Assembly (NCBI GenBank): GCA_964562985.1
Contig: CAZLWE010000004.1
Span: forward strand, 17,338-81,337
Length of the DNA: 64,000 nucleotides
Direction: 5' to 3'
Origin: an uncultured Acidimicrobiales bacterium
Lineage (GTDB): Bacteria > Actinomycetota > Acidimicrobiia > Acidimicrobiales > SHLQ01
Position numbers and translations under genes: made by a program. Shown here in pieces: positions 10,289 to 22,126 of this stretch; the first letter of the stretch is position 1, and each line of letters opens with the position of its first letter. The notes under the pieces were generated by a model. That model had not been told where the DNA came from. It did no database searches and was given only the letters and a program-made list of their open reading frames with translations.

Positions 10289-10375
10289 AGTTCCCCCTCG
10301 GGTCAGAGCCCGCCAGTGACACGCCGCAGCGTACGCCAACCGGCTACCGTAGCGCTACGCCGAAGGAGGCCCGAA

Positions 10376-12936: not shown

Positions 12937-14016
12937 CTACGTCGAGGAGCCTTCATAGAGCGGGCCATGCTCGATATTGGGAAGCACGTGCTCAGCGAAG
13001 AGGTCGGCTTCTGCGACGTGGGTGTAGCCGCTCAAAATGAACGCTCCCACGCCAACCTCTTGGTAGGCCCGAAGCTTGGCGAGCACCTGGTCGGGGTCGC
13101 CAACTATCGCCGCGCCCGCACCCGAGCGGGCGCGTCCGACGCCGGTCCAAAGGTTCTCCTCGACAAAGCCGTCGTCGGAGGAGGATTCACGCAACTCGTT
13201 CTGGCGAGACACGCCAGCGGACTTGGTGTCGAGGCTCTTCCCACGGATCTTCTCACCCTCTTCGGCATCGAGCTTCGAGAGCAACCGATCCGCAGCAGCG
13301 CGAGCCTCGGCTTCGGTCTCTCGGACGATGACGTGGGCTCGCAGCCCGTACTTCAATTCACGGTCATAGCCCGCGGCGAGTTTGGTCATCTCGGTCACCG
13401 TGTCGCCGACTCCGACGACGGTGTCGGGCCAGGTGAGAAATACGTCGGCATGCTCGGCGGCAGTGTCCTTCGCTGCGGGGCTGAAGCCACCGAAGTAGAA
13501 GGGTGGGCACTTCCCCGACACGGTTCGCATGCGCGGCGGGTCCACAACGAGATCGACGAACTCGCCGTGGTGCTCGACAGACTCGCCGTTGAGGAGCGCC
13601 CGCAGGACGGTCATCCACTCGCGGGTGCGCTGATAGCGGGGTGCCGATTCAAGCGGAGCACCCGGGATGTCGCTCGAGATGATGTTGATCGTGAGTCGAC
13701 CATTTGCCATCTGATCGATGGTGGCCAGCTGGCGGGCGAGCTGGGGCAACCACATCTCCCCCATCCGCACGGCGAGCAGCAGTTGGATCTGCATGGTGTG
13801 CGTCGCGATCGCCGCGGCGAACGATGTCGAATCCATCCCTAGCTGATAGCCCGACGGCAGCAGGACATTGTCATAGCCGAGGGTGTCGGCGGTCTTGACG
13901 ATGTTCGAACAATGCGGCCACGACGATTTCAAGTGGTCCTCTGGAACGCCGAGGTATTCATAGTCATCGTCGCAGAGCGCGCCGAACCATGAAATCTCTA
14001 CTGGTTGATCAGACAT
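12937..14016 (-). CDS. SsuD-type FMNH2-dependent (alkane)sulfonate monooxygenase family protein
   Basis: Start ATG at 14016; the 86-codon extension in the ORF track runs into the upstream AKR gene. Blocks PPFYFGGFS, LTWPD, HVIVRETEAEA, NLWTGVGRARSGAGAAIVGD and FILSGYTH line up with the SsuD blocks I know. Confidence 0.8.
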   Translation of the reverse strand: MSDQPVEISWFGALCDDDYEYLGVPEDHLKSSWPHCSNIVKTADTLGYDNVLLPSGYQLGMDSTSFAAAIATHTMQIQLLLAVRMGEMWLPQLARQLATIDQMANGRLTINIISSDIPGAPLESAPRYQRTREWMTVLRALLNGESVEHHGEFVDLVVDPPRMRTVSGKCPPFYFGGFSPAAKDTAAEHADVFLTWPDTVVGVGDTVTEMTKLAAGYDRELKYGLRAHVIVRETEAEARAAADRLLSKLDAEEGEKIRGKSLDTKSAGVSRQNELRESSSDDGFVEENLWTGVGRARSGAGAAIVGDPDQVLAKLRAYQEVGVGAFILSGYTHVAEADLFAEHVLPNIEHGPLYEGSST

Positions 14017-14071
14017 TTGGACTGAACCCTCTCTGGAAGCGAATCGAAAGTTGTTTGCACGCGGAACCAAG

Positions 14072-14980
14072 TCAAGGGAGCGGTACCCCCTCGCTGGCCT
14101 CGATGAGGTTGTACACATCGTTGCGGTCGAGATGAACGCTCGTGGCCTCGGCCGCGAACACCAGCCGAGCAGGCGTTTGGGTGCCGAGAAGTGCGACCGG
14201 CTTCGACGGGTGGGCCAGTACAAAGGCCACAGCGATCGCCGCACGATCAACGCCTTCGCGTTCGGCCAACTCATCGACGACCGTGAGGAGTTCAGGCCTC
14301 AGGCCCTCACCCGAGAAGAGTCGTCCTCCCGCCATGGGGCTCCATGCGAGGGGAACGACCCCATCGCGCATAGCTCGGTCGAATGTGCCGTCTCGCAGCG
14401 GTTGTGTATGAGCCAACGAATACTCGGGTTGTGTGGACACGATCGGCGCATTCATGTGCGCAGCAAGAGCGTCGTACTGGCCGACGGTGAAGTTGGAGAC
14501 TCCGACCATCGCAATCTTGCCGGCCGCGACCAGCTCGTCGAGCGTGGCAGCAACATCGGCGGGATGCGCGAACATATCCGGGCGGTGAATTTGCCACAGA
14601 TCGATGTGCTCTACGCCAAGGCGACCGAGTGACGCATCGACTGCCGACCGGAGATACTCCGGACTCGAGTCGTACGGCAGCGGCGGCATGATGCCACCCT
14701 TCGTAGCCAAGACCATGCGGTCCCGAAGTTCTGGGGCGGCGGCCAGTACTTCACCGAGTCGTTCCTCGTTTTGCCCGAAGCCCGTACCGCCGTGATCGAG
14801 CCCGTAGACATCGGCCGTGTCGATGAGGTTCATACCGTGGTCAAGGGCCGTCTCGATGAGTTCTTGGTTCTTGGACACGTCGCCCGAAGTAAGGCGCCAC
14901 GTGCCATATCCGAGGGCACCGATGTCGGTACCTGATGCAGAGAATGTGCGATTGGCGAAACTAACGAGGTTGGAAGACAT
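14072..14980 (-). CDS. aldo/keto reductase
   Basis: GYGTWRL...IDTADVYG...LATKGG pattern of the AKR superfamily. It is the first gene of a two-gene operon with the monooxygenase. Confidence 0.85.
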   Translation of the reverse strand: MSSNLVSFANRTFSASGTDIGALGYGTWRLTSGDVSKNQELIETALDHGMNLIDTADVYGLDHGGTGFGQNEERLGEVLAAAPELRDRMVLATKGGIMPPLPYDSSPEYLRSAVDASLGRLGVEHIDLWQIHRPDMFAHPADVAATLDELVAAGKIAMVGVSNFTVGQYDALAAHMNAPIVSTQPEYSLAHTQPLRDGTFDRAMRDGVVPLAWSPMAGGRLFSGEGLRPELLTVVDELAEREGVDRAAIAVAFVLAHPSKPVALLGTQTPARLVFAAEATSVHLDRNDVYNLIEASEGVPLP

Positions 14981-15013
14981 GGTTCTGATGGTAGCTCAAC
15001 TAGACTTGCTGAT

Positions 15014-15027
15014 TGCAAACGTTTACA
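15014..15027. promoter_or_regulatory. LacI-family operator candidate TGCAAACGTTTACA
   Basis: 14-bp near-perfect palindrome in the AT-rich divergent AKR / Gfo-Idh-MocA intergenic region. It differs by 1 nt from the site at 22174-22187. Confidence 0.7.
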
Positions 15028-15067
15028 TTATTGATAAATCAACGACAACACGAGAGTCAAATTTTTT

Positions 15068-16201
15068 ATGACTGACACACACCTTCGGTATGGCGTCATC
15101 GGTACTGGGATGATGGGCGTCGAACACATTCTCAATATCAAGGCTCTCGACAACACCGCGGTGACGGCCATTTGCGACACCGATGAGATCTCTCGCAAAG
15201 CTGGCCTCGAAGCTGCAGGCCCAGATGCGACCGTGTACGAGGACTATCGCGATCTACTCGCCGACGAGACCGTCGACGCGGTCGTAGTTGTCACCCCCAA
15301 CTTCACCCACATCGACGTCATGCGCAACGTGATCTCCTCCGGCAAACATGTGCTCTGTGAAAAGCCGCTGTGCATCACCGCGGCCGAATGCCAAACGCTG
15401 ATCGACGAGTCAGATGGCTACGACGGCGTCATCTGGGTCGGCCTCGAATATCGCTACATGCCCGCCGTCGAGGCACTGATCAAGGAGGTTCGAAACGGCT
15501 TCGTCGGCGATCCGAAGATGGTGGCGATTCGCGAGCATCGATTCCCGTTCCTGGTCAAGGTCGGCGACTGGAATCGTTTCAGCGCGAATACCGGTGGAAC
15601 GCTGGTCGAGAAGACCTGCCACTACTTCGACCTTATGAACCTCATCCTCGACGAGCGCCCATCCCAAGTGTTCGCATCGGGAGCCCAAGACGTGAACCAC
15701 CTGGACGAGACCTACGACGGAAAGCAAAGCGACATCTTGGACAACGCCTTCGTGATCATCGACTACCCGAGCGGCAAACGTGCGCTGCTCGATCTCTGCA
15801 TGTTCGCCGAGGCAACTCGTGATCAAGAAGAGCTTTCAGTTGTGGGCGACAAGGGGAAGGTCGACGCACGGATCCCCACGTCGGAGCTGCACCTTGGGAC
15901 CCGCTCAGGCGAGGGCATCCCCGATATCGGCCAGGTAGAAACCCGAAAAATAACCAACGACGCGATCCAACATGTCGGTCTCCACCACGGAGCGAGCTAT
16001 CTCGAGCACGTCGACTTTGCAGCTGCCATCCAAGCTCACCGCGCAGCTGGTGGCGGCGAAGCCGGTGCGGCGGCGGTTGCTGAGCTCGGCACCCTGGTAA
16101 GCCTCGAAGACGGAATGTGGTCCGTCGCGATGGGCGAAGCCGCCCACCGTTCCATCGAAGAAAACCGCCCAGTCTCCCTGCGCGAAATCATCGGGGTCTG
16201 A
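15068..16201 (+). CDS. Gfo/Idh/MocA family oxidoreductase
   Basis: N-terminal Rossmann motif YGVIGTGMMGVEHI and the EKP motif (LCEKPL). 377 aa. The stop codon lies inside the first REP-like palindrome. Confidence 0.85.
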   Translation: MTDTHLRYGVIGTGMMGVEHILNIKALDNTAVTAICDTDEISRKAGLEAAGPDATVYEDYRDLLADETVDAVVVVTPNFTHIDVMRNVISSGKHVLCEKPLCITAAECQTLIDESDGYDGVIWVGLEYRYMPAVEALIKEVRNGFVGDPKMVAIREHRFPFLVKVGDWNRFSANTGGTLVEKTCHYFDLMNLILDERPSQVFASGAQDVNHLDETYDGKQSDILDNAFVIIDYPSGKRALLDLCMFAEATRDQEELSVVGDKGKVDARIPTSELHLGTRSGEGIPDIGQVETRKITNDAIQHVGLHHGASYLEHVDFAAAIQAHRAAGGGEAGAAAVAELGTLVSLEDGMWSVAMGEAAHRSIEENRPVSLREIIGV

Positions 16202-16250
16202 CCCCTTCCGTCCCCATATGAGACGCGCGGGGTCAGACCCACTTCGTCCC
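16193..16250. repeat. REP-like doublet (left flank)
   Basis: GGGTCTGACCCC (16194-16205) and GGGGTCAGACCC (16229-16240) are exact reverse complements separated by 23 nt. Each is followed by a (T/C)TTC(C)GTCCC tail. Confidence 0.75.
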
Positions 16251-16345
16251 TCTTGTCACACCACCCGGCTACGTTGGCCTTTCGCTCGTTGCGATACCTC
16301 GGAAGCATCACGTTTCCCTCCATTCAATTTCTGGAATCGTGAACA

Positions 16346-17275
16346 ATGCCAAGACGCCCGAGAATCGACTACCCCGGCGCCTACCACCACGTAATGAACA
16401 GAGGCGCCGACCGTCAGGCCACATTTCGCTCCGAACGCGATCACAAGGACTTCACCTGTTTGTGGGCCGAAGCCGTGATTCGCTTTGGGATCGTTGTCCA
16501 CGCCTATGCCTGGATGGGGAACCATTACCACGCCCTAGTGATGTCACCCGACGCACAGCTCAGTGAAACCCTTCGGTGGATTGGCCATGTCTACACCCAG
16601 CGTTTCAACAAGCGCCACGGCCGAGATGGCGCTTTGTTTCGAGGGCGATTCCACTCGGTTTTGATCGACAGCGACGCATATCTACATCGAGTAGCTCGCT
16701 ACATCGAGCGGAACCCTCTCGAAGCGGGTCTTGCCACCCCAGAAAGCCTCGTTCGGTATAAGTGGTCAAGCCTTCAGCATTATCTAAACCCAACCTCGTC
16801 CGACTGGGTGGAGACCAAACCCTTACTCTCTCGACTTGGGTCCCGGCACGAGTACCTCCGACATGTGTTGTCGGATCATTCAGACGACGTGTTGGAGGGC
16901 TTTTATAATCGAGAAGAACAACCGCTTTTGGTGCTCGGCGACCAAGAGTTCGTTGACTCATTGCCCTGCGAAGTTGCCGGACTGAACCCAACCGTGGGTC
17001 TTACACACGTCTCGTTAGCAGAGATTGACTTTGCGCTCAGTCAGGTACGAGCGCTGCGGATCATCGGCACCAGAAGCCGTGGTCTAGCGGTCGAACTCGG
17101 ACAAAGACTTGCTGGCGCTACAAGACGCGAACTGGCCGACCACTACAACTTCAAGACGGTAAGTTCAGTCTCATCAGCAATCTCACGCAGCAAAGCGGAC
17201 CCCAACACCGCCGAAACGAGGCGGGCGATAATGAGCTACTTGGGGCGATCCAGCCAAGGACCGCTTGCGAGCTAG
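16346..17275 (+). CDS. Y1 (HUH) transposase, IS200-like/REP-associated type, with C-terminal DnaA-C-like HTH
   Basis: HUH motif in GNHYHALVM and a catalytic Tyr region RYIERNPLEAG. The C-terminal segment (RRELADHYNFKTVSSVSSAISR) resembles the DnaA domain IV HTH. Confidence 0.8.
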   Translation: MPRRPRIDYPGAYHHVMNRGADRQATFRSERDHKDFTCLWAEAVIRFGIVVHAYAWMGNHYHALVMSPDAQLSETLRWIGHVYTQRFNKRHGRDGALFRGRFHSVLIDSDAYLHRVARYIERNPLEAGLATPESLVRYKWSSLQHYLNPTSSDWVETKPLLSRLGSRHEYLRHVLSDHSDDVLEGFYNREEQPLLVLGDQEFVDSLPCEVAGLNPTVGLTHVSLAEIDFALSQVRALRIIGTRSRGLAVELGQRLAGATRRELADHYNFKTVSSVSSAISRSKADPNTAETRRAIMSYLGRSSQGPLAS

Positions 17276-17283
17276 AGCCGCAG

Positions 17284-17332
17284 GGGGTCTGACCCCAAAC
17301 GGCTCACTTCGGGACGGAGAGGGTCTGACCCC
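17284..17332. repeat. REP-like repeats (right flank)
   Basis: GGGGTCTGACCCC at 17284-17296 and GGGACGGAGAGGGTCTGACCCC at 17311-17332. Confidence 0.75.
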
Positions 17333-17344
17333 ATTGATCTGGGT

Positions 17345-17379
17345 CTGGTTGGCGAGGCTTTGAAGACCTCGCCAACCAG
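17345..17379. terminator. 13-bp perfect hairpin between convergent genes (bidirectional terminator candidate)
   Basis: CTGGTTGGCGAGG-ctttgaaga-CCTCGCCAACCAG lies between the transposase stop (17275) and the permease stop (17423). There is no U-tract on either strand. Confidence 0.5.
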
Positions 17380-17422
17380 GACCTGTGAAGGGGGGAACAG
17401 TGATGCGCTAGGGATCGCTTGG

Positions 17423-18379
17423 CTAACCCTTGACCGAACCAGCCAGTAGGCCGCGGACGAAGTAGCGCTGGAGACTGAAGAAGACAACGATCGGTACGAA
17501 CGCCTGGACGAATGCGCCCGCCGTCAGAAGATGTTCGGTATCGGTGAAGTCGCCCGACAGGTTCGCGATGCGAACCGTCGTAGGTGCATCCGAACCAATG
17601 CCGAGCATCGTGTTAGCGATCAGAAAGTCATTCCACGTCCACAAGAACTGGAAGATCCCGAACGCGGCCAGCGCCGGAACCGACAGCGGAAGCACCAGGC
17701 GCCAGAAGATCCCGAAATGATTCGCTCCGTCGATCTTGGCGGACTCGAAGATGTCCTTAGGCAGCTGCGAGATGTAGTTGTGCAACAAGAAGATCGCAAA
17801 CGGCATCGCGAAGCCAGTGTGGGTGAGCCATACGGAGGCGGATGTGCCAGCAAGGTTGTTCAACGGCACCAACGTGAGTGTCTTGTCGGTGAAAGGAACT
17901 GTGAGGTGAGCCCCACCAAAGGGATCACCGTCGCCGAACAGCTGAAGCAGCGGGATCAAGGCAACTTGGAGCGGCAACGCCAGCAATGAAACCGTCACGA
18001 TGAAGAGCCACTTGCGGCCTTTGAAGTCAATCCATGCAAAGCCGTAGGCGGCAAAGGCAGCGAACGCGATCGGGATGATTGTTGCGGGAATCGCAATGGA
18101 AAGGCTCGTGACCAGCGACGCGGTCAGGCTGCTGGTAGTTCCCGCCGAAAGCACCTCTTGGTAGTTCTCTAGCGTGATCTCGGGTTCGAAGATGATGTTC
18201 CAGAAGGCGTTTCGTCGCTGTCCGTCGCGACTACGGAACGAGTTAACGGCCAAGCTCAGATTCGGGATAGTCCAAATGACGACGATCGCCCACATCGCCC
18301 ACGTCGGAACGTCACTCAATCGCTTATAGAGACGATCGCCCAACCCGTCGCCAGATGAGGGATCGGTTACCGAGCTCAT
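17423..18379 (-). CDS. carbohydrate ABC transporter permease (MalG-like)
   Basis: Six-TM pattern with the EAA-type loop FESAKIDGANHFGIFWRLVLP. Overlaps the upstream permease by 4 nt. Confidence 0.85.
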   Translation of the reverse strand: MSSVTDPSSGDGLGDRLYKRLSDVPTWAMWAIVVIWTIPNLSLAVNSFRSRDGQRRNAFWNIIFEPEITLENYQEVLSAGTTSSLTASLVTSLSIAIPATIIPIAFAAFAAYGFAWIDFKGRKWLFIVTVSLLALPLQVALIPLLQLFGDGDPFGGAHLTVPFTDKTLTLVPLNNLAGTSASVWLTHTGFAMPFAIFLLHNYISQLPKDIFESAKIDGANHFGIFWRLVLPLSVPALAAFGIFQFLWTWNDFLIANTMLGIGSDAPTTVRIANLSGDFTDTEHLLTAGAFVQAFVPIVVFFSLQRYFVRGLLAGSVKG

Positions 18380-20526
18380 GCGTGTCCCTTCTGCAGGCTG
18401 TAGATGTTGTAGACCATGACGGGCAATACGAGCAGGAACATCACGATCGCAATCGAGGCGCCGAAGCCGACGTTTCCAAGCTGGAATGACTCGGTGATCA
18501 TCTGGTTCGCAAGCACGTCGTTACCGAAGGTTCCCCGAAGGCCGGCAACAGCAACGATGTCGAAGACTTTGGTGACCTGCACGATGAGCGTGGTGACCAC
18601 CACGCCGATCGTCGGAAAGATCGTTGGCAGGGTCACCCGGAAGAAGATGTCGGATTCGGTCGCTCCATCCACCTTTGCTGACTCAATGAATTCTTGCGGG
18701 ACGGCCTTGATCGCCGCCGAGATGATCACCATGGCGAAGCCGGTCTGAATCCAAATCAAGATCAACATAAGCCAGACGTTGTTGAAAGGCTGCTCGGTCA
18801 AGAAGGACACCGTCTCGGGCACCAACGCGCCATCAGCATCGAAAGTGAATCCGCCTAGCCGGGGCCCGATGAAGCGATAGAGGAGCCACCCCGAAACGAC
18901 CAACCCGATGGACATTCCAGTGAAAGCCCGATCACTCGTTGCCCGCCTGAAGATTCCCCAAGCGAAAGCTGCGGTCAGCGCTACGAACAGCACGATCATC
19001 AAAATGCGGGGAAGGCCCGAGTTGCTGAGTTCGCCAAGCGCGACCCACACAGCATTCAATGTGCCGGTCTGACTCTGAGAAATCGGACGAGCTTGGAACT
19101 GCAATCGCCACACGATTGACGCGCCGACAAAGGAGATAGCCATGGGCATAAAGATCAGACTCTTGGCAAGGTTCTCGCCGAACTTCGCTCGATCGGATAA
19201 CACCGCGATCGCCGTACCAGCCACCGTCGAGACCGTTACTACAGTGATCACCCACCAAATGTTGTTGAAGAACGTTCCTCGCACAACCGACAAGGCAGCG
19301 AACGACGCCAGGAACAGCGCGAAGAAGACCGCTCCGATAGTGGTTGGGCTCTTCTCAATTGAGGCGTGGCCATTGCGACGAATTCCACCCAACACCGCAA
19401 CGATTGCCGCGATCGCTAACAGGACCAACGCCGCATAGAACAATCGCGAAGTGAAGAAGGCGGCCCAGTTTGAGGTGTCGAAGGAGTCCCGTGCGGTGAA
19501 CAAGCGTTGGTAGTTCGCGAATTGCACGAATTCATCACCGTTGCGATCTTTGAAGGAGAGGATTCCAGTTCGAACCGTCGGGATTACCAGAGCGATAGTC
19601 AGGAATGTGAGGGCGGGGCCGAGGAAGATGAAGCCTCGAGCCCGACTGTCGAAGAGGGCGCGTTCCTTGTGACTCGGTGCGAGCTGCCATCCAAAGCCGC
19701 CCATGATCAGCACGAGCGGCACAACCGTAGAGATGTACGGCGCGTCGACCACTACGGCAAATGGGGAGAGTAGCCAGCCACCGATCGCCCAGCCGAGACC
19801 CGCTCCGATCAAGGCTCCACGTGCTGGCTCACCAGATGACCGGGTGAGCGCTGCCCCAATTGCGCCCACCACCAGCGTCGCCACGATGATGGCGATCCAA
19901 TTGGGGTCTGGCCGTTGCAAGATTCGTGTGTTCGACGCGATGAGCCAACCGGCGACGCCTCCGAGCACGGCTGCCACAGCGAAGCGAGCGAAACGGTTGG
20001 GGATCGACTTCATCACGTAGGCACCGGCGCCAAACAGCAGCGCGCCGATAAGTGGCCATTCGATATGACCAAGGAACCCGGTCCCCACCGCGTCGTTCAG
20101 GAGCAGGGGATCGGAATCAGCGAAGATCGGATCGACTTCGGAGAACAACGGGCCAACCGATCGGTTCCCTCGAAGGATTCCGAAGAGACCGGCGCCGAGG
20201 GTTGCCCCAACGAGGCCGGAGAAGTTGTTCCATCGTTGGCGGGCCTGGTTCACAAAGAGGTTCAGCCCGACCCACAGGCCAATACAGAGGGTCACCGAGA
20301 TCAGCACGGTGGCGAGCATTCGCAGCACCCGTTCGAAGTCGGCGCTACCGGTTAGGCCGCTGAATCCTCCGGCTGCAACGAGCAGGAGGATTACGACACC
20401 CACACCAGCGGCGAAAATGAGACCCGCCTTCAGCGGACGCTCTCGCGACAGTCGCAGAAGGCCGTACAGCGAAGCAATGATGAGGGCGACCAGGACGATG
20501 GCGCCGAGCAACTGCATGGGAAGCAT
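18376..20526 (-). CDS. carbohydrate ABC transporter permease (MalF-like core) with ~300-aa polytopic N-terminal extension
   Basis: The C-terminal part carries the EAA loop IESAKVDGATESDIFFRVTLP. The N-terminal ~300 aa are additional hydrophobic helices. I prefer ATG at 20526 (or 20517), because the TTG at 20586 lies inside an intergenic hairpin. Confidence 0.75.
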   Translation of the reverse strand: MLPMQLLGAIVLVALIIASLYGLLRLSRERPLKAGLIFAAGVGVVILLLVAAGGFSGLTGSADFERVLRMLATVLISVTLCIGLWVGLNLFVNQARQRWNNFSGLVGATLGAGLFGILRGNRSVGPLFSEVDPIFADSDPLLLNDAVGTGFLGHIEWPLIGALLFGAGAYVMKSIPNRFARFAVAAVLGGVAGWLIASNTRILQRPDPNWIAIIVATLVVGAIGAALTRSSGEPARGALIGAGLGWAIGGWLLSPFAVVVDAPYISTVVPLVLIMGGFGWQLAPSHKERALFDSRARGFIFLGPALTFLTIALVIPTVRTGILSFKDRNGDEFVQFANYQRLFTARDSFDTSNWAAFFTSRLFYAALVLLAIAAIVAVLGGIRRNGHASIEKSPTTIGAVFFALFLASFAALSVVRGTFFNNIWWVITVVTVSTVAGTAIAVLSDRAKFGENLAKSLIFMPMAISFVGASIVWRLQFQARPISQSQTGTLNAVWVALGELSNSGLPRILMIVLFVALTAAFAWGIFRRATSDRAFTGMSIGLVVSGWLLYRFIGPRLGGFTFDADGALVPETVSFLTEQPFNNVWLMLILIWIQTGFAMVIISAAIKAVPQEFIESAKVDGATESDIFFRVTLPTIFPTIGVVVTTLIVQVTKVFDIVAVAGLRGTFGNDVLANQMITESFQLGNVGFGASIAIVMFLLVLPVMVYNIYSLQKGHA

Positions 20527-20562
20527 CCCCGGTACTAGGAAGTGAAAAAGAAGACCGGAGGG

Positions 20563-20627
20563 GGCGGGGGCTGACCCGAAGGTCAAACCCCCGCCATATC
20601 CGGAGAGTCAGCCTGACACTGTCAGGC
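20563..20627. promoter_or_regulatory. two intercistronic stem-loops between SBP and permease genes
   Basis: GGCGGGGG..(TGACC-cgaa-GGTCA)..CCCCCGCC at 20563-20595 and GCCTGAC-act-GTCAGGC at 20611-20627. Their position is typical of mRNA-stabilising or attenuating hairpins after SBP genes. Confidence 0.5.
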
Positions 20628-20638
20628 CGAAGCCAGAG

Positions 20639-22126
20639 TTATGGCCAGAAGGTGTCGATTTCGGCGGTGCCTTCCTCGACGGTGGTGTCACCATTCACGA
20701 TCTGGGTACCAACTTCCCAGAATGCGTTGTTCACGTCGCCACCAATGAGGTCCGAAGCGTCGAATCGGAAGATGTCAGCATCCTGAAGGATCGACACGAA
20801 GTTCGACTCGAGCGGGTTCCACAGTGATGGATCGGCGCCGGTGTTTGCGGTTACGAAGCCCGAAAGTACGAGTTCTTCGCTGTCACCCTGCAGGAGTGCC
20901 TGCTGAGCGGTTTGACGTGCGTTGGCGTACTCAGCGCTTGCGAAGTACTCCATGACAGCCCATACCTCTGGACGATCGTTGAATGCGCCAACGAAGGTTC
21001 CGCCACCGAGGACTGGACGATCGGTGCCGTTGCCTGGGAAGAAGAACACGTCGACTGCACCTTCACTGCCATCAGCAACCGGGGTGCCTTCTGGGAAGAA
21101 GGAGGCGAAGAACGATGCCTGGCGGTGCATGAAGCAGTCGCCGTTGACGAGAGGCTCAGCGTTGTCACGGAACGAGGTGGTAGCGATGCTGCCACCTGCG
21201 GCGAAGACGGCACCTGGCTTGTTCCACTCATCGATGATGATCTGGAAAGCATTGGTGAGCTCTGGGCTCGAGAACAGAAGTTCTCCAGCTACCCAAGCGT
21301 CGTAGTTCTCCGGAGTGGTTGTACGGAGCATGATGTCCTCAACCCAGTCGGTGAATGGCCAACCGGTTGCGCCACCGGACTCGATACCGACACACCATGG
21401 GGTGTTGCCGTCAGCGATCATCTGGTCGCTAAGTGCGAACAGGTCGTCGAGGGTGGTTGGAATGTCGTAGCCGGCGGCTTCGAAGCGTGCTGGCTGGTAC
21501 CAAACGAGCGACTTGAGGTCGTTCTTGTTCGGAAGACCGAACTGGGTGCCGTCGAAGTTCGCGAAGTTGATCGCGTCTGGGGTCCAGTTCGCCTGTGCAG
21601 CCTCGATGATCGACGCAGGTACTTCTTGGACGTGTCCAGCGTCTGCGGCATCACGAAGGTTGCCTGGCTGAGGGAACACGGAGATGTCCGGGTTGGTGCC
21701 AGCTTCGAGCTGAATATTGATTTCGGTCTCCCAGTCGGCTGAGCCCTGGTAGATGATCGAAATGCCGTTGGCGTTACCGAACTCCTGCAGTGCTTGGTTC
21801 AGTGCACCAGCTTCGGCTTCGGATCGCTCTGGACCAGAAACGGTCACAACGGGAACAGCGTCGTCGTCGCCTTCACCGGCTTCGGCGGCAGCAGCCTCAG
21901 CCGCTTCAGCGCGGGCTTCTGCGTCCGCAGCAGCTGCTTCGGCCTCTGCCTGAGCAGCTTGTGCTTCAGCTACCGCATCACTTGCTGCGTCGTCGCCGCC
22001 CTCGGCTGCATCGGCCACGGCGTCTGCCGCACCTTCAACAGTGTCCGTTGCCCCACCACATGCCGCGGCGATCAGTGACAACGCGAACAGCGACGCAAAC
22101 AGCTTCATCCATTTGCTTGTCTTCAC
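20639..22126 (-). CDS. sugar ABC transporter substrate-binding lipoprotein (family 1)
   Basis: Lipobox LIAAACGG, an Ala/Glu-rich linker, then a family-1 extracellular solute-binding body. GTG at 22126 has GGGGGAG upstream; ATG at 22141 and 22108 are alternatives. Confidence 0.85.
   Translation of the reverse strand: MKTSKWMKLFASLFALSLIAAACGGATDTVEGAADAVADAAEGGDDAASDAVAEAQAAQAEAEAAAADAEARAEAAEAAAAEAGEGDDDAVPVVTVSGPERSEAEAGALNQALQEFGNANGISIIYQGSADWETEINIQLEAGTNPDISVFPQPGNLRDAADAGHVQEVPASIIEAAQANWTPDAINFANFDGTQFGLPNKNDLKSLVWYQPARFEAAGYDIPTTLDDLFALSDQMIADGNTPWCVGIESGGATGWPFTDWVEDIMLRTTTPENYDAWVAGELLFSSPELTNAFQIIIDEWNKPGAVFAAGGSIATTSFRDNAEPLVNGDCFMHRQASFFASFFPEGTPVADGSEGAVDVFFFPGNGTDRPVLGGGTFVGAFNDRPEVWAVMEYFASAEYANARQTAQQALLQGDSEELVLSGFVTANTGADPSLWNPLESNFVSILQDADIFRFDASDLIGGDVNNAFWEVGTQIVNGDTTVEEGTAEIDTFWP

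Follow-up and report, generated by a model that had tools for sequence, protein, structure and literature searches.

We examined a 64-kb stretch of contig CAZLWE010000004.1 from an uncultured Acidimicrobiales bacterium (hereafter the window), in which a transposase-like gene of the Y1/HUH superfamily lies between palindromic repeats. An original prediction, made from the letters of the window, had described an intact gene resembling the repetitive extragenic palindrome (REP)-associated tyrosine transposases (RAYTs) and placed it between its cognate inverted palindromes; on this point the Pfam match, the motifs, the predicted fold and two 65-nt arms all agree. The 309-aa open reading frame (ORF) was found intact at 16346-17275 on the plus strand, with the HYH and YIERNP motifs present. 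Upstream of it, on the same strand, lies a Gfo/Idh/MocA gene of inositol-dehydrogenase-like type (15068-16201; both the N- and the C-terminal GFO_IDH_MocA domains of Pfam, TIGR04380 under its cut-off). The left arm occupies 16187-16251 and the right arm 17274-17338, and a convergent ABC permease gene has its stop at 17423, beyond a further hairpin at 17345-17379.

The Pfam family Y1_Tnp (PF01797) matched residues 13-123 of the protein (E = 1.4e-8; 35.3 bits against a cut-off of 23). We looked for the catalytic residues by aligning 39 homologs, 32-66% identical to the window protein, and found H60-Y-H62 and Y119 to be invariant. In all 39 homologs H60, H62, Q85, Y119, N123, W140 and S142 were retained, and P124 was conserved in at least 90% of them; the window protein reads YIERNP where the family consensus is YIELNP. 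The domain layout comprises a Y1 core (approximately residues 1-145), a linker with WSS at residues 140-142 and a helix-turn-helix (HTH) resembling DnaA domain IV (approximately residues 215-300). The AlphaFold2 model was confident (pLDDT 90.7, pTM 0.80), and its top Foldseek match in the PDB was 4ER8, the E. coli TnpA-REP protein with its REP hairpin (E = 1.4e-6, TM 0.72). Foldseek also returned 2A6M, 2XM3 and 2F4F, like 4ER8 at a probability of 1.00, and the structures of the IS608, ISDra2 and IS200 TnpA proteins ranked below 4ER8. Sequence searches of the PDB gave no match with the single window protein and DnaA only with the family profile; the Y1 relationship had to be established by Pfam and the fold search.

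The predicted DnaA-C-like HTH tail was borne out for the family: positions 217-307 of the profile matched DnaA domain IV structures (E = 2.2e-10), and PF08299 (Bac_DnaA_C) was matched by 11 of the 39 homologs. The window protein alone, on the other hand, falls under the DnaA_C threshold. It has an 11-residue deletion in the C-terminal domain, which is shared by its clade.

Repeat units in the flanking arms

Four GGGGTCWGACCC cores bracket the Y1 gene within the two arms, which are 65 nt each and 75% complementary to one another. The 13-mer GGGGTCTGACCCC occurs exactly at 16193 and 17284 and with one mismatch at 16229 (GGGGTCAGACCCA) and 17320 (AGGGTCTGACCCC), and every perfect or one-mismatch core in the 64 kb sits at the Y1 flanks. 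When up to two mismatches were allowed there were 10 strand-matches against 2.6 expected, a number reached by none of 100 shuffles. The first 13 nt of the unit form a perfect self-palindrome (GGGGTCWGACCCC), the stem of which is GGGGTC/GACCCC with a loop of 1-3 nt. Each of the four cores carries GGGGTCAG, which fits the published consensus GGGGWSAS, on one of its strands; it faces the gene in the inner-left copy and in both right copies. No GTAG was present next to any of the four cores. Nor did the searchable literature hold the palindrome string as a bacterial repeat; only unrelated primers and virus sequences were returned.

The left arm, recognised from an inverted repeat that it shares with the right arm (I1), from I3 with its 19-nt arms and from the DNA fold, consists of two repeat units. 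The first, at 16193-16214 on the plus strand, is GGGGTCTGACCCC followed by TTC and CGTCCC and was also picked up as repeat D1. The second and inner one, at 16229-16250 on the same strand, is GGGGTCAGACCCA followed by CTT and CGTCCC. The right arm (inverted repeats I1 and I2, repeat D2) has a copy reduced to the core at 17284-17296 and a full unit on the minus strand at 17311-17332 (GGGGTCAGACCCT followed by CTC and CGTCCC). CGTCC(C) thus stands 4 nt past the core in three of the four copies (16193-16214, 16229-16250 and 17311-17332). The original description of a palindrome with a CGTCCC tail around the gene is accurate for the four cores, whereas the tail is missing from the one at 17284. The 22-mers at 16229-16250 and 17311-17332, which had been called the outer inverted repeats, are indeed complementary at 20 of 22 positions, but the 16229 copy is the inner one of the left arm.

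A left doublet with a 12-bp stem had likewise been predicted, and the DNA fold returned the 12-bp stem together with an inner stem of 4-6 bp. Folded as single-stranded DNA, this doublet has a free energy of -16.8/-18.5 kcal/mol (z -4.1/-4.6), and the left arm as a whole is drawn as a single-strand hairpin.

Residency of the locus and dispersal of the repeats in relatives

Orthologs of the Y1 gene occupy the same slot in three related lineages, which we label L005, L007 and L148 (67%, 61% and 64% identity to the window protein), with the gene order aldo-keto reductase, Gfo/Idh/MocA, Y1 and convergent ABC permeases. Neighbouring proteins are 75-93% identical across the syntenic lineages, and the proportion of synonymous differences (pS) is 0.60-0.82 in every gene, that is, saturated. 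For the Y1 gene the proportion of nonsynonymous differences (pN) is 0.23-0.32; its N-terminal catalytic domain has 0.13 and the C-terminal part 0.31. As pN lies far below pS, the gene is under purifying selection, which bears most heavily on the nuclease core. All syntenic lineages have kept the core palindrome, and its presence across lineages with saturated synonymous sites means that a 13-nt core has been retained in non-coding DNA. The original prediction spoke of an inserted element, which implies a recent event; the same slot filled in at least four lineages with saturated synonymous sites and Y1 proteins 57-67% identical speaks against it.

An identical protein was found on five contigs from different samples, in one genomic context only. 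In the four places shown, two long contigs have the same neighbours and two short ones (about 1 kb) the same flanking cores. Other slots are used by more distant members: two homologs 39-43% identical to the window protein (P0043 and P0027) lie between hemB and mreB, and another (P0015) between dtd and lnt. In lineage L149, whose Gfo protein is 87% identical, the slot holds a DUF805 gene and no Y1 gene, and Gfo ends in ...EILTGMVAESA. No clean pre-insertion target could be derived because L149, the only Y1-free slot found, is occupied by this DUF805 gene. As a possible empty site we considered the slot beside P0129, the nearest Gfo ortholog (96.5% identical), and found a divergent Y1 allele there. 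The family is rare on plasmids, where it turned up in 24 of 72,556 records with identities under 45% throughout, and it is nearly absent from phages.

A separate observation concerns L148 (contig k141_456586). Window positions 14393-16240 are 95.6% identical to L148 positions 1-1851 at the DNA level, up to the second left palindrome, and from the Y1 gene onward (window 16298-21500 against L148 2010-7257) identity falls to 73-78%. Protein identities are 96.5% for Gfo, 64% for Y1 and 84-93% for the permeases. The drop points to one of two things: homologous recombination with its breakpoint in the repeat array, or contigs wrongly joined during assembly at the repeats they share.

The Gfo gene ends ...ATC GGG GTC TGA, of which GGG GTC TGA (16193-16201) lies within the first palindrome. 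As had been predicted, this palindrome holds the stop codon (TGA, 16199-16201) and supplies the last two codons along with it, the in-frame TGA of this copy being due to its central T. Comparison with orthologs agrees: Gfo proteins without the element end in ...EIL, ...EILN or ...EILTGMVAESA, those with it in ...EI[ILT]GV followed by the stop. Upstream stops within or abutting the first palindrome recur in L005 (9789-9791), L007 (9741-9743), L148 (1803-1805), L011 (approximately 9885) and L045 (4195-4197). GGG GTC TGA ends Gfo in three lineages, Dtd in L011 and an ORF in L045, and in L148 TAG directly abuts GGTCAGACCC.

The core GGGTCWGACCC accompanies homologs of 39-67% identity in three different genomic slots. 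It flanks the Y1 gene in L005, L007, L148, L011 and L015, which share the inverted flanking arrangement, and stands upstream of it in L013. L005 has four 36-nt tandem units on each side, inverted, and L148 five copies on the left and three on the right. The arms that extend the core differ between lineages: a 41-nt perfect palindrome in L011, CACTTG/CAAGTG in L013, ATTTG/CAAAT in L015 and GGTTG/CAACC in L045. Plain inverted repeats, GGGGTCAAATCTTTT, flank the gene in L014, whose protein is more distantly related and has a complete Bac_DnaA_C domain. Nor is CGTC universal, as L007, L013 and L148 are without it and CCTC or TGTC variants occur in relatives; GTCAC at a fixed offset was seen in Acidimicrobiales units only.

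Two candidate signals were rejected. General compensatory covariation outside the 13-nt core was not supported among 137 unique clustered cores, where Watson-Crick pairing of the mirrored flanks barely exceeded that of shuffled ones, and we make no claim of covariation because only some lineages extend the palindrome. A universal motif downstream of the core and CGTC was discarded as well, positional information being about zero beyond the forced pattern in 150 units, a set that includes many chance singletons.

The original prediction had proposed counting the palindrome genome-wide, and the count gave a divided answer. In about 72 kb of the organism's own genome no dispersed population was shown and only one decayed relic was found, the degenerate unit CGGGTCAGAGCCCGCCAGTGACA at 10299-10322 on the plus strand, in the spacer between the SnoaL_2 and luciferase genes (a two-mismatch match, seen also in the alignment with L149). 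The orthologous spacer of L149 (1095-1145) holds a better-preserved doublet, GGGGTCAGAC...GGGGTCCGACCCC, though Y1 is absent from the L149 slot. Dispersed repeats in this genome appear to be small in number or decayed. In related metagenome-assembled genomes (MAGs), by contrast, dispersed arrays were present. Scanning species-representative genomes with GGGGTCWGACCCNNNNCGTCC gave at least 118 loci; the source contig was not among the matches listed. At least two cores within 8 kb were found at 38 of the 118 loci listed, and only one of these 38 had a Y1 gene nearby. Among the matches listed, the hosts of multi-core loci were Acidimicrobiales, Gaiellales, Acidobacteriota, Hyphomicrobiaceae, Planctomycetota, Omnitrophota and others. 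A scan of metagenomes returned 13 unrelated matches and none from samples holding this organism.

Two of these MAGs are particularly informative. CALHXU01, of the Acidimicrobiales, has at least seven arrays on three contigs, made of 36-nt units about 90% like the L005 flanks and located between ordinary host genes (MOSC, DUF805, MDMPI_N, SBP_bac_5) with no Y1 gene nearby. In DASRQS01, of the Gaiellales, one unit type flanks the Y1 gene (L061) and recurs as a doublet on a second contig (L037). With such arrays or doublets lying apart from the gene, dispersal of cognate units is real in relatives.

Two further observations concern other MAGs. An alphaproteobacterial MAG (JACKEQ01, locus L026) is unusually dense, with fifteen GGGTCWGACCC cores in 8 kb and no Y1 gene in that stretch. 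MAGs of Acidobacteriota/Vicinamibacterales (L039, L089, L113, L082 and L126) have GGGGTCAGACCCCGGNCGTCCG followed by (A/G)TTACACAC or ATTTCCACACA, so that a DnaA-box-like TTACACAC or TTTCCACACA stands beside the core (box consensus TT[AT]TNCACA). This is noteworthy because the enzyme class has a tail like DnaA domain IV.

Leader, downstream hairpin and neighbouring genes

The limits of the element had been given as 16193-17332; from the arms, the left edge should be placed at about 16187 and the right edge at 17338 or beyond. Between the left repeats and the Y1 gene lies a conserved alignment block, the TGTCACAC box (16254-16261, plus strand), which is identical in the four syntenic lineages and present too in another slot (L013). 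In the Acidobacteriota units the DnaA-box-like sequences lie about equally far off. Its conservation makes it a candidate operator, promoter element or HTH site. In the leader (16309-16341, plus strand), RNAalifold paired CACGTTTCC (16309-16317) with GGAATCGTG (16333-16341) just 5' of the ATG, with 14 pairs in four leaders, two of them compensated (in L007). Such pairing might occlude the ribosome-binding site as described for IS200, a possibility to which four sequences lend weak support. A 17-nt inverted match (82% complementary) between the leader at 16305-16321 (GCATCACGTTTCCCTCC) and the DNA past the right hairpin at 17390-17406 (GGGGGGAACAGTGATGC) may be due to chance.

Beyond the right arm, the perfect 13-bp hairpin at 17345-17379 (inverted repeat I5) folds with a free energy of -18.8 kcal/mol (z -6.8). 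It is without a T-run and the terminator scan made no call; it is probably a bidirectional terminator-like structure. A similar hairpin stands between the right-flank palindromes of L148, so the one in the window may belong to the element. Scans for sigma-70 promoters and intrinsic terminators found nothing. The Actinomyces-1 small RNA family of Rfam matched 17204-17319, across the 3' end of the Y1 gene and the right repeats, below threshold (26.8 bits against a gathering score of 39.1; E = 0.1), probably by chance.

The surrounding gene order (window 12937-21500) is conserved in the syntenic stretches of L005, L007 and L149. The neighbourhood includes a LacI regulator, a solute-binding protein, two ABC permeases, the Gfo/Idh/MocA protein, an aldo-keto reductase and luciferase-like monooxygenases, and from its gene content looks like a utilisation cluster of sugar or inositol type. 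Two transcription units converge at the Y1 locus, which therefore interrupts no operon. GC content is 0.55-0.56 in the Y1 gene and 0.58-0.62 in its neighbours. The ORF list showed no tnpB adjoining the Y1 gene, and no second Y1 gene was found elsewhere in the window.

Class assignment, rival explanations and meaning

We assign the locus, with a probability of roughly 0.78, to the TIRtrons: a chromosomal gene at a single locus, inherited vertically and encoding a Y1/HUH nuclease-ligase of TIRYT type for single-stranded DNA (TnpA-Y1 subclass 2.1, also Group 1 RAYT), accompanied by the palindromes that the enzyme would recognise. The original prediction noted that REP/RAYT systems are best described in Proteobacteria; the class to which this locus is assigned has already been described and is not a new REP/RAYT system. 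Under the names TIRYT and TIRtron, Di Nocera et al. (2013, BMC Genomics 14:522; PMC3733652) reported RAYT-like genes between inverted repeats that have GGGGWSAS in common, and Quentin et al. (2018; PMC6006769) equated the TIRYTs with TnpA-Y1 subclass 2.1 and with the Group 1 RAYTs of Bertels et al. (2017; PMC5581495). Proteins of subclass 2.1 carry NH[YF]H (NHVH), YIELNP (Y[IV]HLNP) and an SS motif, with a C-terminal Bac_DnaA_C, HTH_23 or HTH_28 domain; they number about 1.9 copies per genome and are mostly chromosomal (PMC6006769). We judged membership feature by feature (motifs, HTH tail and GGGGWSAS repeats). The active-site signature of the window protein is that of class 2 (Y-x3-NP: Y119-I-E-R-N123-P124), not the Y[IV]ENQ of class 1, and of the subclass 2.1 motifs N59-H-Y-H62, YIERNP and W140-S141-S142 are present, with T84-Q85 in place of the W[EQ]/FQ motif.

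Like the published TIRtrons, the locus combines a RAYT-like gene longer than the classical RAYTs, the HUH motif and tyrosine kept, with GGGGWSAS (here GGGGTCAG) in the flanks. Among the published terminal inverted repeats (TIRs), some are self-complementary, are met as dimers or in clusters and make up families of moderate abundance (PMC3733652). The present repeats differ in that the first 13 nt (GGGGTCWGACCCC) are self-palindromic, that 36-nt tandem units or doublets stand on both sides, that CGTC(C) lies 4 nt off the core and that, against those moderately abundant families, no dispersed family was shown in about 72 kb. The host differs as well, being of Acidimicrobiia type, whereas Actinobacteria are unmentioned in the main text of PMC3733652. 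With subclass 2.1 (2.1.2) the protein shares NH[YF]H, YIE(L)NP, the SS motif and the Bac_DnaA_C/HTH tail, and it departs from it in the T-Q for W/F-Q, the REP-like flanks here with arrays in relatives, and the actinobacterial host; in the complete-genome survey, Actinobacteridae carried Y1 proteins of subclass 1.1 (IS200-type) only (PMC6006769).

Comparison with other known systems was less close. E. coli TnpA-REP (subclass 2.2; 4ER8; PMC3479197) is the best structural match; it is a vertically inherited single-copy gene between palindromes that are its substrates, with units in doublets, and the window gene, in the one context seen for it, is arranged alike. Unlike that REPtron and its bacterial interspersed mosaic elements (BIMEs), the window has no GTAG tag and no bulged long REP stem, its protein has an extra HTH tail of 165 aa, and its repeats are far fewer than the hundreds of E. 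coli. The IS200, IS608 and ISDra2 TnpA proteins (subclass 1.1) share the HUH/Y1 fold and, presumably, the single-strand cut-and-rejoin chemistry; here, by contrast, there is no Y[IV]ENQ, no multiple identical copies were found, TnpB is missing and the ends are built differently. Finally, CGTC-tagged REPs have been reported without a dedicated transposase, with a stem of 8-9 bp, A/T in the first two positions, a loop of 4-5 nt and CGTC at the foot of the stem (PMC3733652). They resemble the present units as short GC-rich palindromes with an unpaired CGTC, often in head-to-head dimers. In the window, however, the tag is 4 nt away, the stem is another one, and the tag is not universal in relatives, so the units fall outside that family and the likeness is a lead only.

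Several observations weigh against the TIRtron assignment or against an active system. REP_Tyr_transpos (NF047646), the sole NCBIfam family matched, scored 46.2 bits, under its equivalog cut-off of 80, and this model represents the short classical RAYTs. Quentin et al. entered subclass 2.1 as having no REPs, with no REP-like sequences near the genes (PMC6006769). The 13-nt core by itself forms a stem of 5 bp at most, extension of the palindrome past it is specific to lineages and without general covariation, and the right doublet folds less well than the left (z approximately -2.4) because both right cores have a central T. The rest of the window (62.9 kb) and a 9.6-kb extension past its left end, from the same population, gave no further intact core, and the element may by now act on its own flanks only. 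A look-up of a protein at the right end of the window found nothing. The link of L005 to the arrays of CALHXU01, drawn from unit similarity and contig naming, is suggestive and falls short of proof. For subclass 2.1 enzymes, the ideas of cleavage, of hairpins being recognised and of CGTC as a tag are extrapolated from TnpA-REP and IS608 TnpA.

An alternative that we regard as unlikely, and nonetheless worth weighing, is that the repeats are double-stranded TIRs or operators read by the DnaA-like HTH, their palindromy reflecting dimer binding, and that the gene encodes an autoregulated, possibly exapted DNA-binding protein. The homology of the HTH to DnaA domain IV, the conserved TGTCACAC box, the DnaA-box-like sequences by the core in Acidobacteriota and the lack of general compensatory covariation outside the 13-nt core all fit, and Di Nocera et al. 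named the repeats TIRs, not REPs (PMC3733652). This account leaves unexplained why the catalytic HUH motif and tyrosine are invariant and why the N-terminal domain is the most constrained (pN 0.13 against 0.31), which argues for retained nuclease chemistry. Moreover, the arms by which several lineages lengthen the palindrome differ in sequence and yet are complementary (the 41 nt of L011, the CACTTG/CAAGTG of L013), doublets form long stems in the window and in L108, and GGGGWSAS is unlike a DnaA box according to Quentin et al. (PMC6006769). Recognition of double-stranded repeats by the HTH is possible for part of the mechanism.

That the palindromes are primarily host elements, serving as terminators, mRNA-stabilising hairpins or stop-codon donors with the Y1 gene secondarily adjacent, seems improbable. 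They are sited at convergent gene ends, next to the extra strong hairpin at 17345-17379, and give or abut the stops of several genes (window, L005, L007, L148, L011 and L045). Yet the core follows Y1 homologs into three unrelated slots and into another class (Gaiellales), the published TIRYT motif is matched, T-runs are missing and none of the many further gene ends in the 72 kb has a copy. An ordinary autonomous IS200-like insertion sequence (IS), recently inserted between the Gfo and ABC transporter genes and with the palindromes as its ends, would suit the IS200/IS605 Y1 superfamily, the bracketing inverted repeats, the slightly lower GC of the Y1 gene and the Y1-free slot of L149, but is very improbable given a slot filled in at least four lineages across saturated synonymous divergence (Y1 57-67% identical), a single context for the identical protein, a class 2 rather than class 1 signature, the missing TnpB partner, tandem palindromic ends unlike the subterminal hairpins of IS200 and the rarity of the family on plasmids.

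For the TIRtron reading, a mechanism can be proposed by analogy with E. coli TnpA-REP and IS608 TnpA. Where the DNA is single-stranded, for instance at the replication fork, units and doublets would fold as hairpins. The Y1 core would bind these hairpins and cut beside them with its HUH-bound metal, forming a 5'-phosphotyrosine link through Y119, and CGTC(C), 4 nt off the core in three of four units, would be a candidate tag analogous to GTAG. Rejoining could then excise, copy or rearrange units, giving the 36-nt tandem arrays, the doublets and occasional new extragenic copies, while the DnaA-domain-IV-like HTH might add binding of double-stranded DNA, possibly at the TGTCACAC box, for autoregulation or targeting. 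A stronger version, which we hold to be quite doubtful, makes the unit a true REP family with a bipartite code composed of the GGGGTCWGACCCC palindrome, CGTC(C) 4 nt off and a TGTCAC/TTACACAC box, the Y1 domain reading the hairpin and cutting at CGTC and the HTH reading the DnaA-box-like part. If true, subclass 2.1 would have cognate REPs, contrary to the 2018 entry, such REPs would occur across many phyla including Actinomycetota, and the missing type of transposase for CGTC-tagged palindromes would be indicated.

What is new here is limited to host range, repeat architecture (a self-palindromic core in 36-nt arrays that can donate a stop codon) and a hint of a bipartite code, and does not amount to a new kind of system. 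The class is extended to Acidimicrobiia and Gaiellales, the host in this case being a marine genome of Acidimicrobiia type. REP-like tandem and doublet flanks are found in a subclass for which their absence had been reported, and the locus combines deep syntenic persistence with a 13-nt palindrome that stays strictly conserved where neutral sites have reached saturation. Among the large RAYT-like subclasses this one is the least studied; the locus gives it a well-documented example, with concrete candidate substrates in the two arms (16187-16251 and 17274-17338) and the TGTCACAC box as a candidate HTH site.

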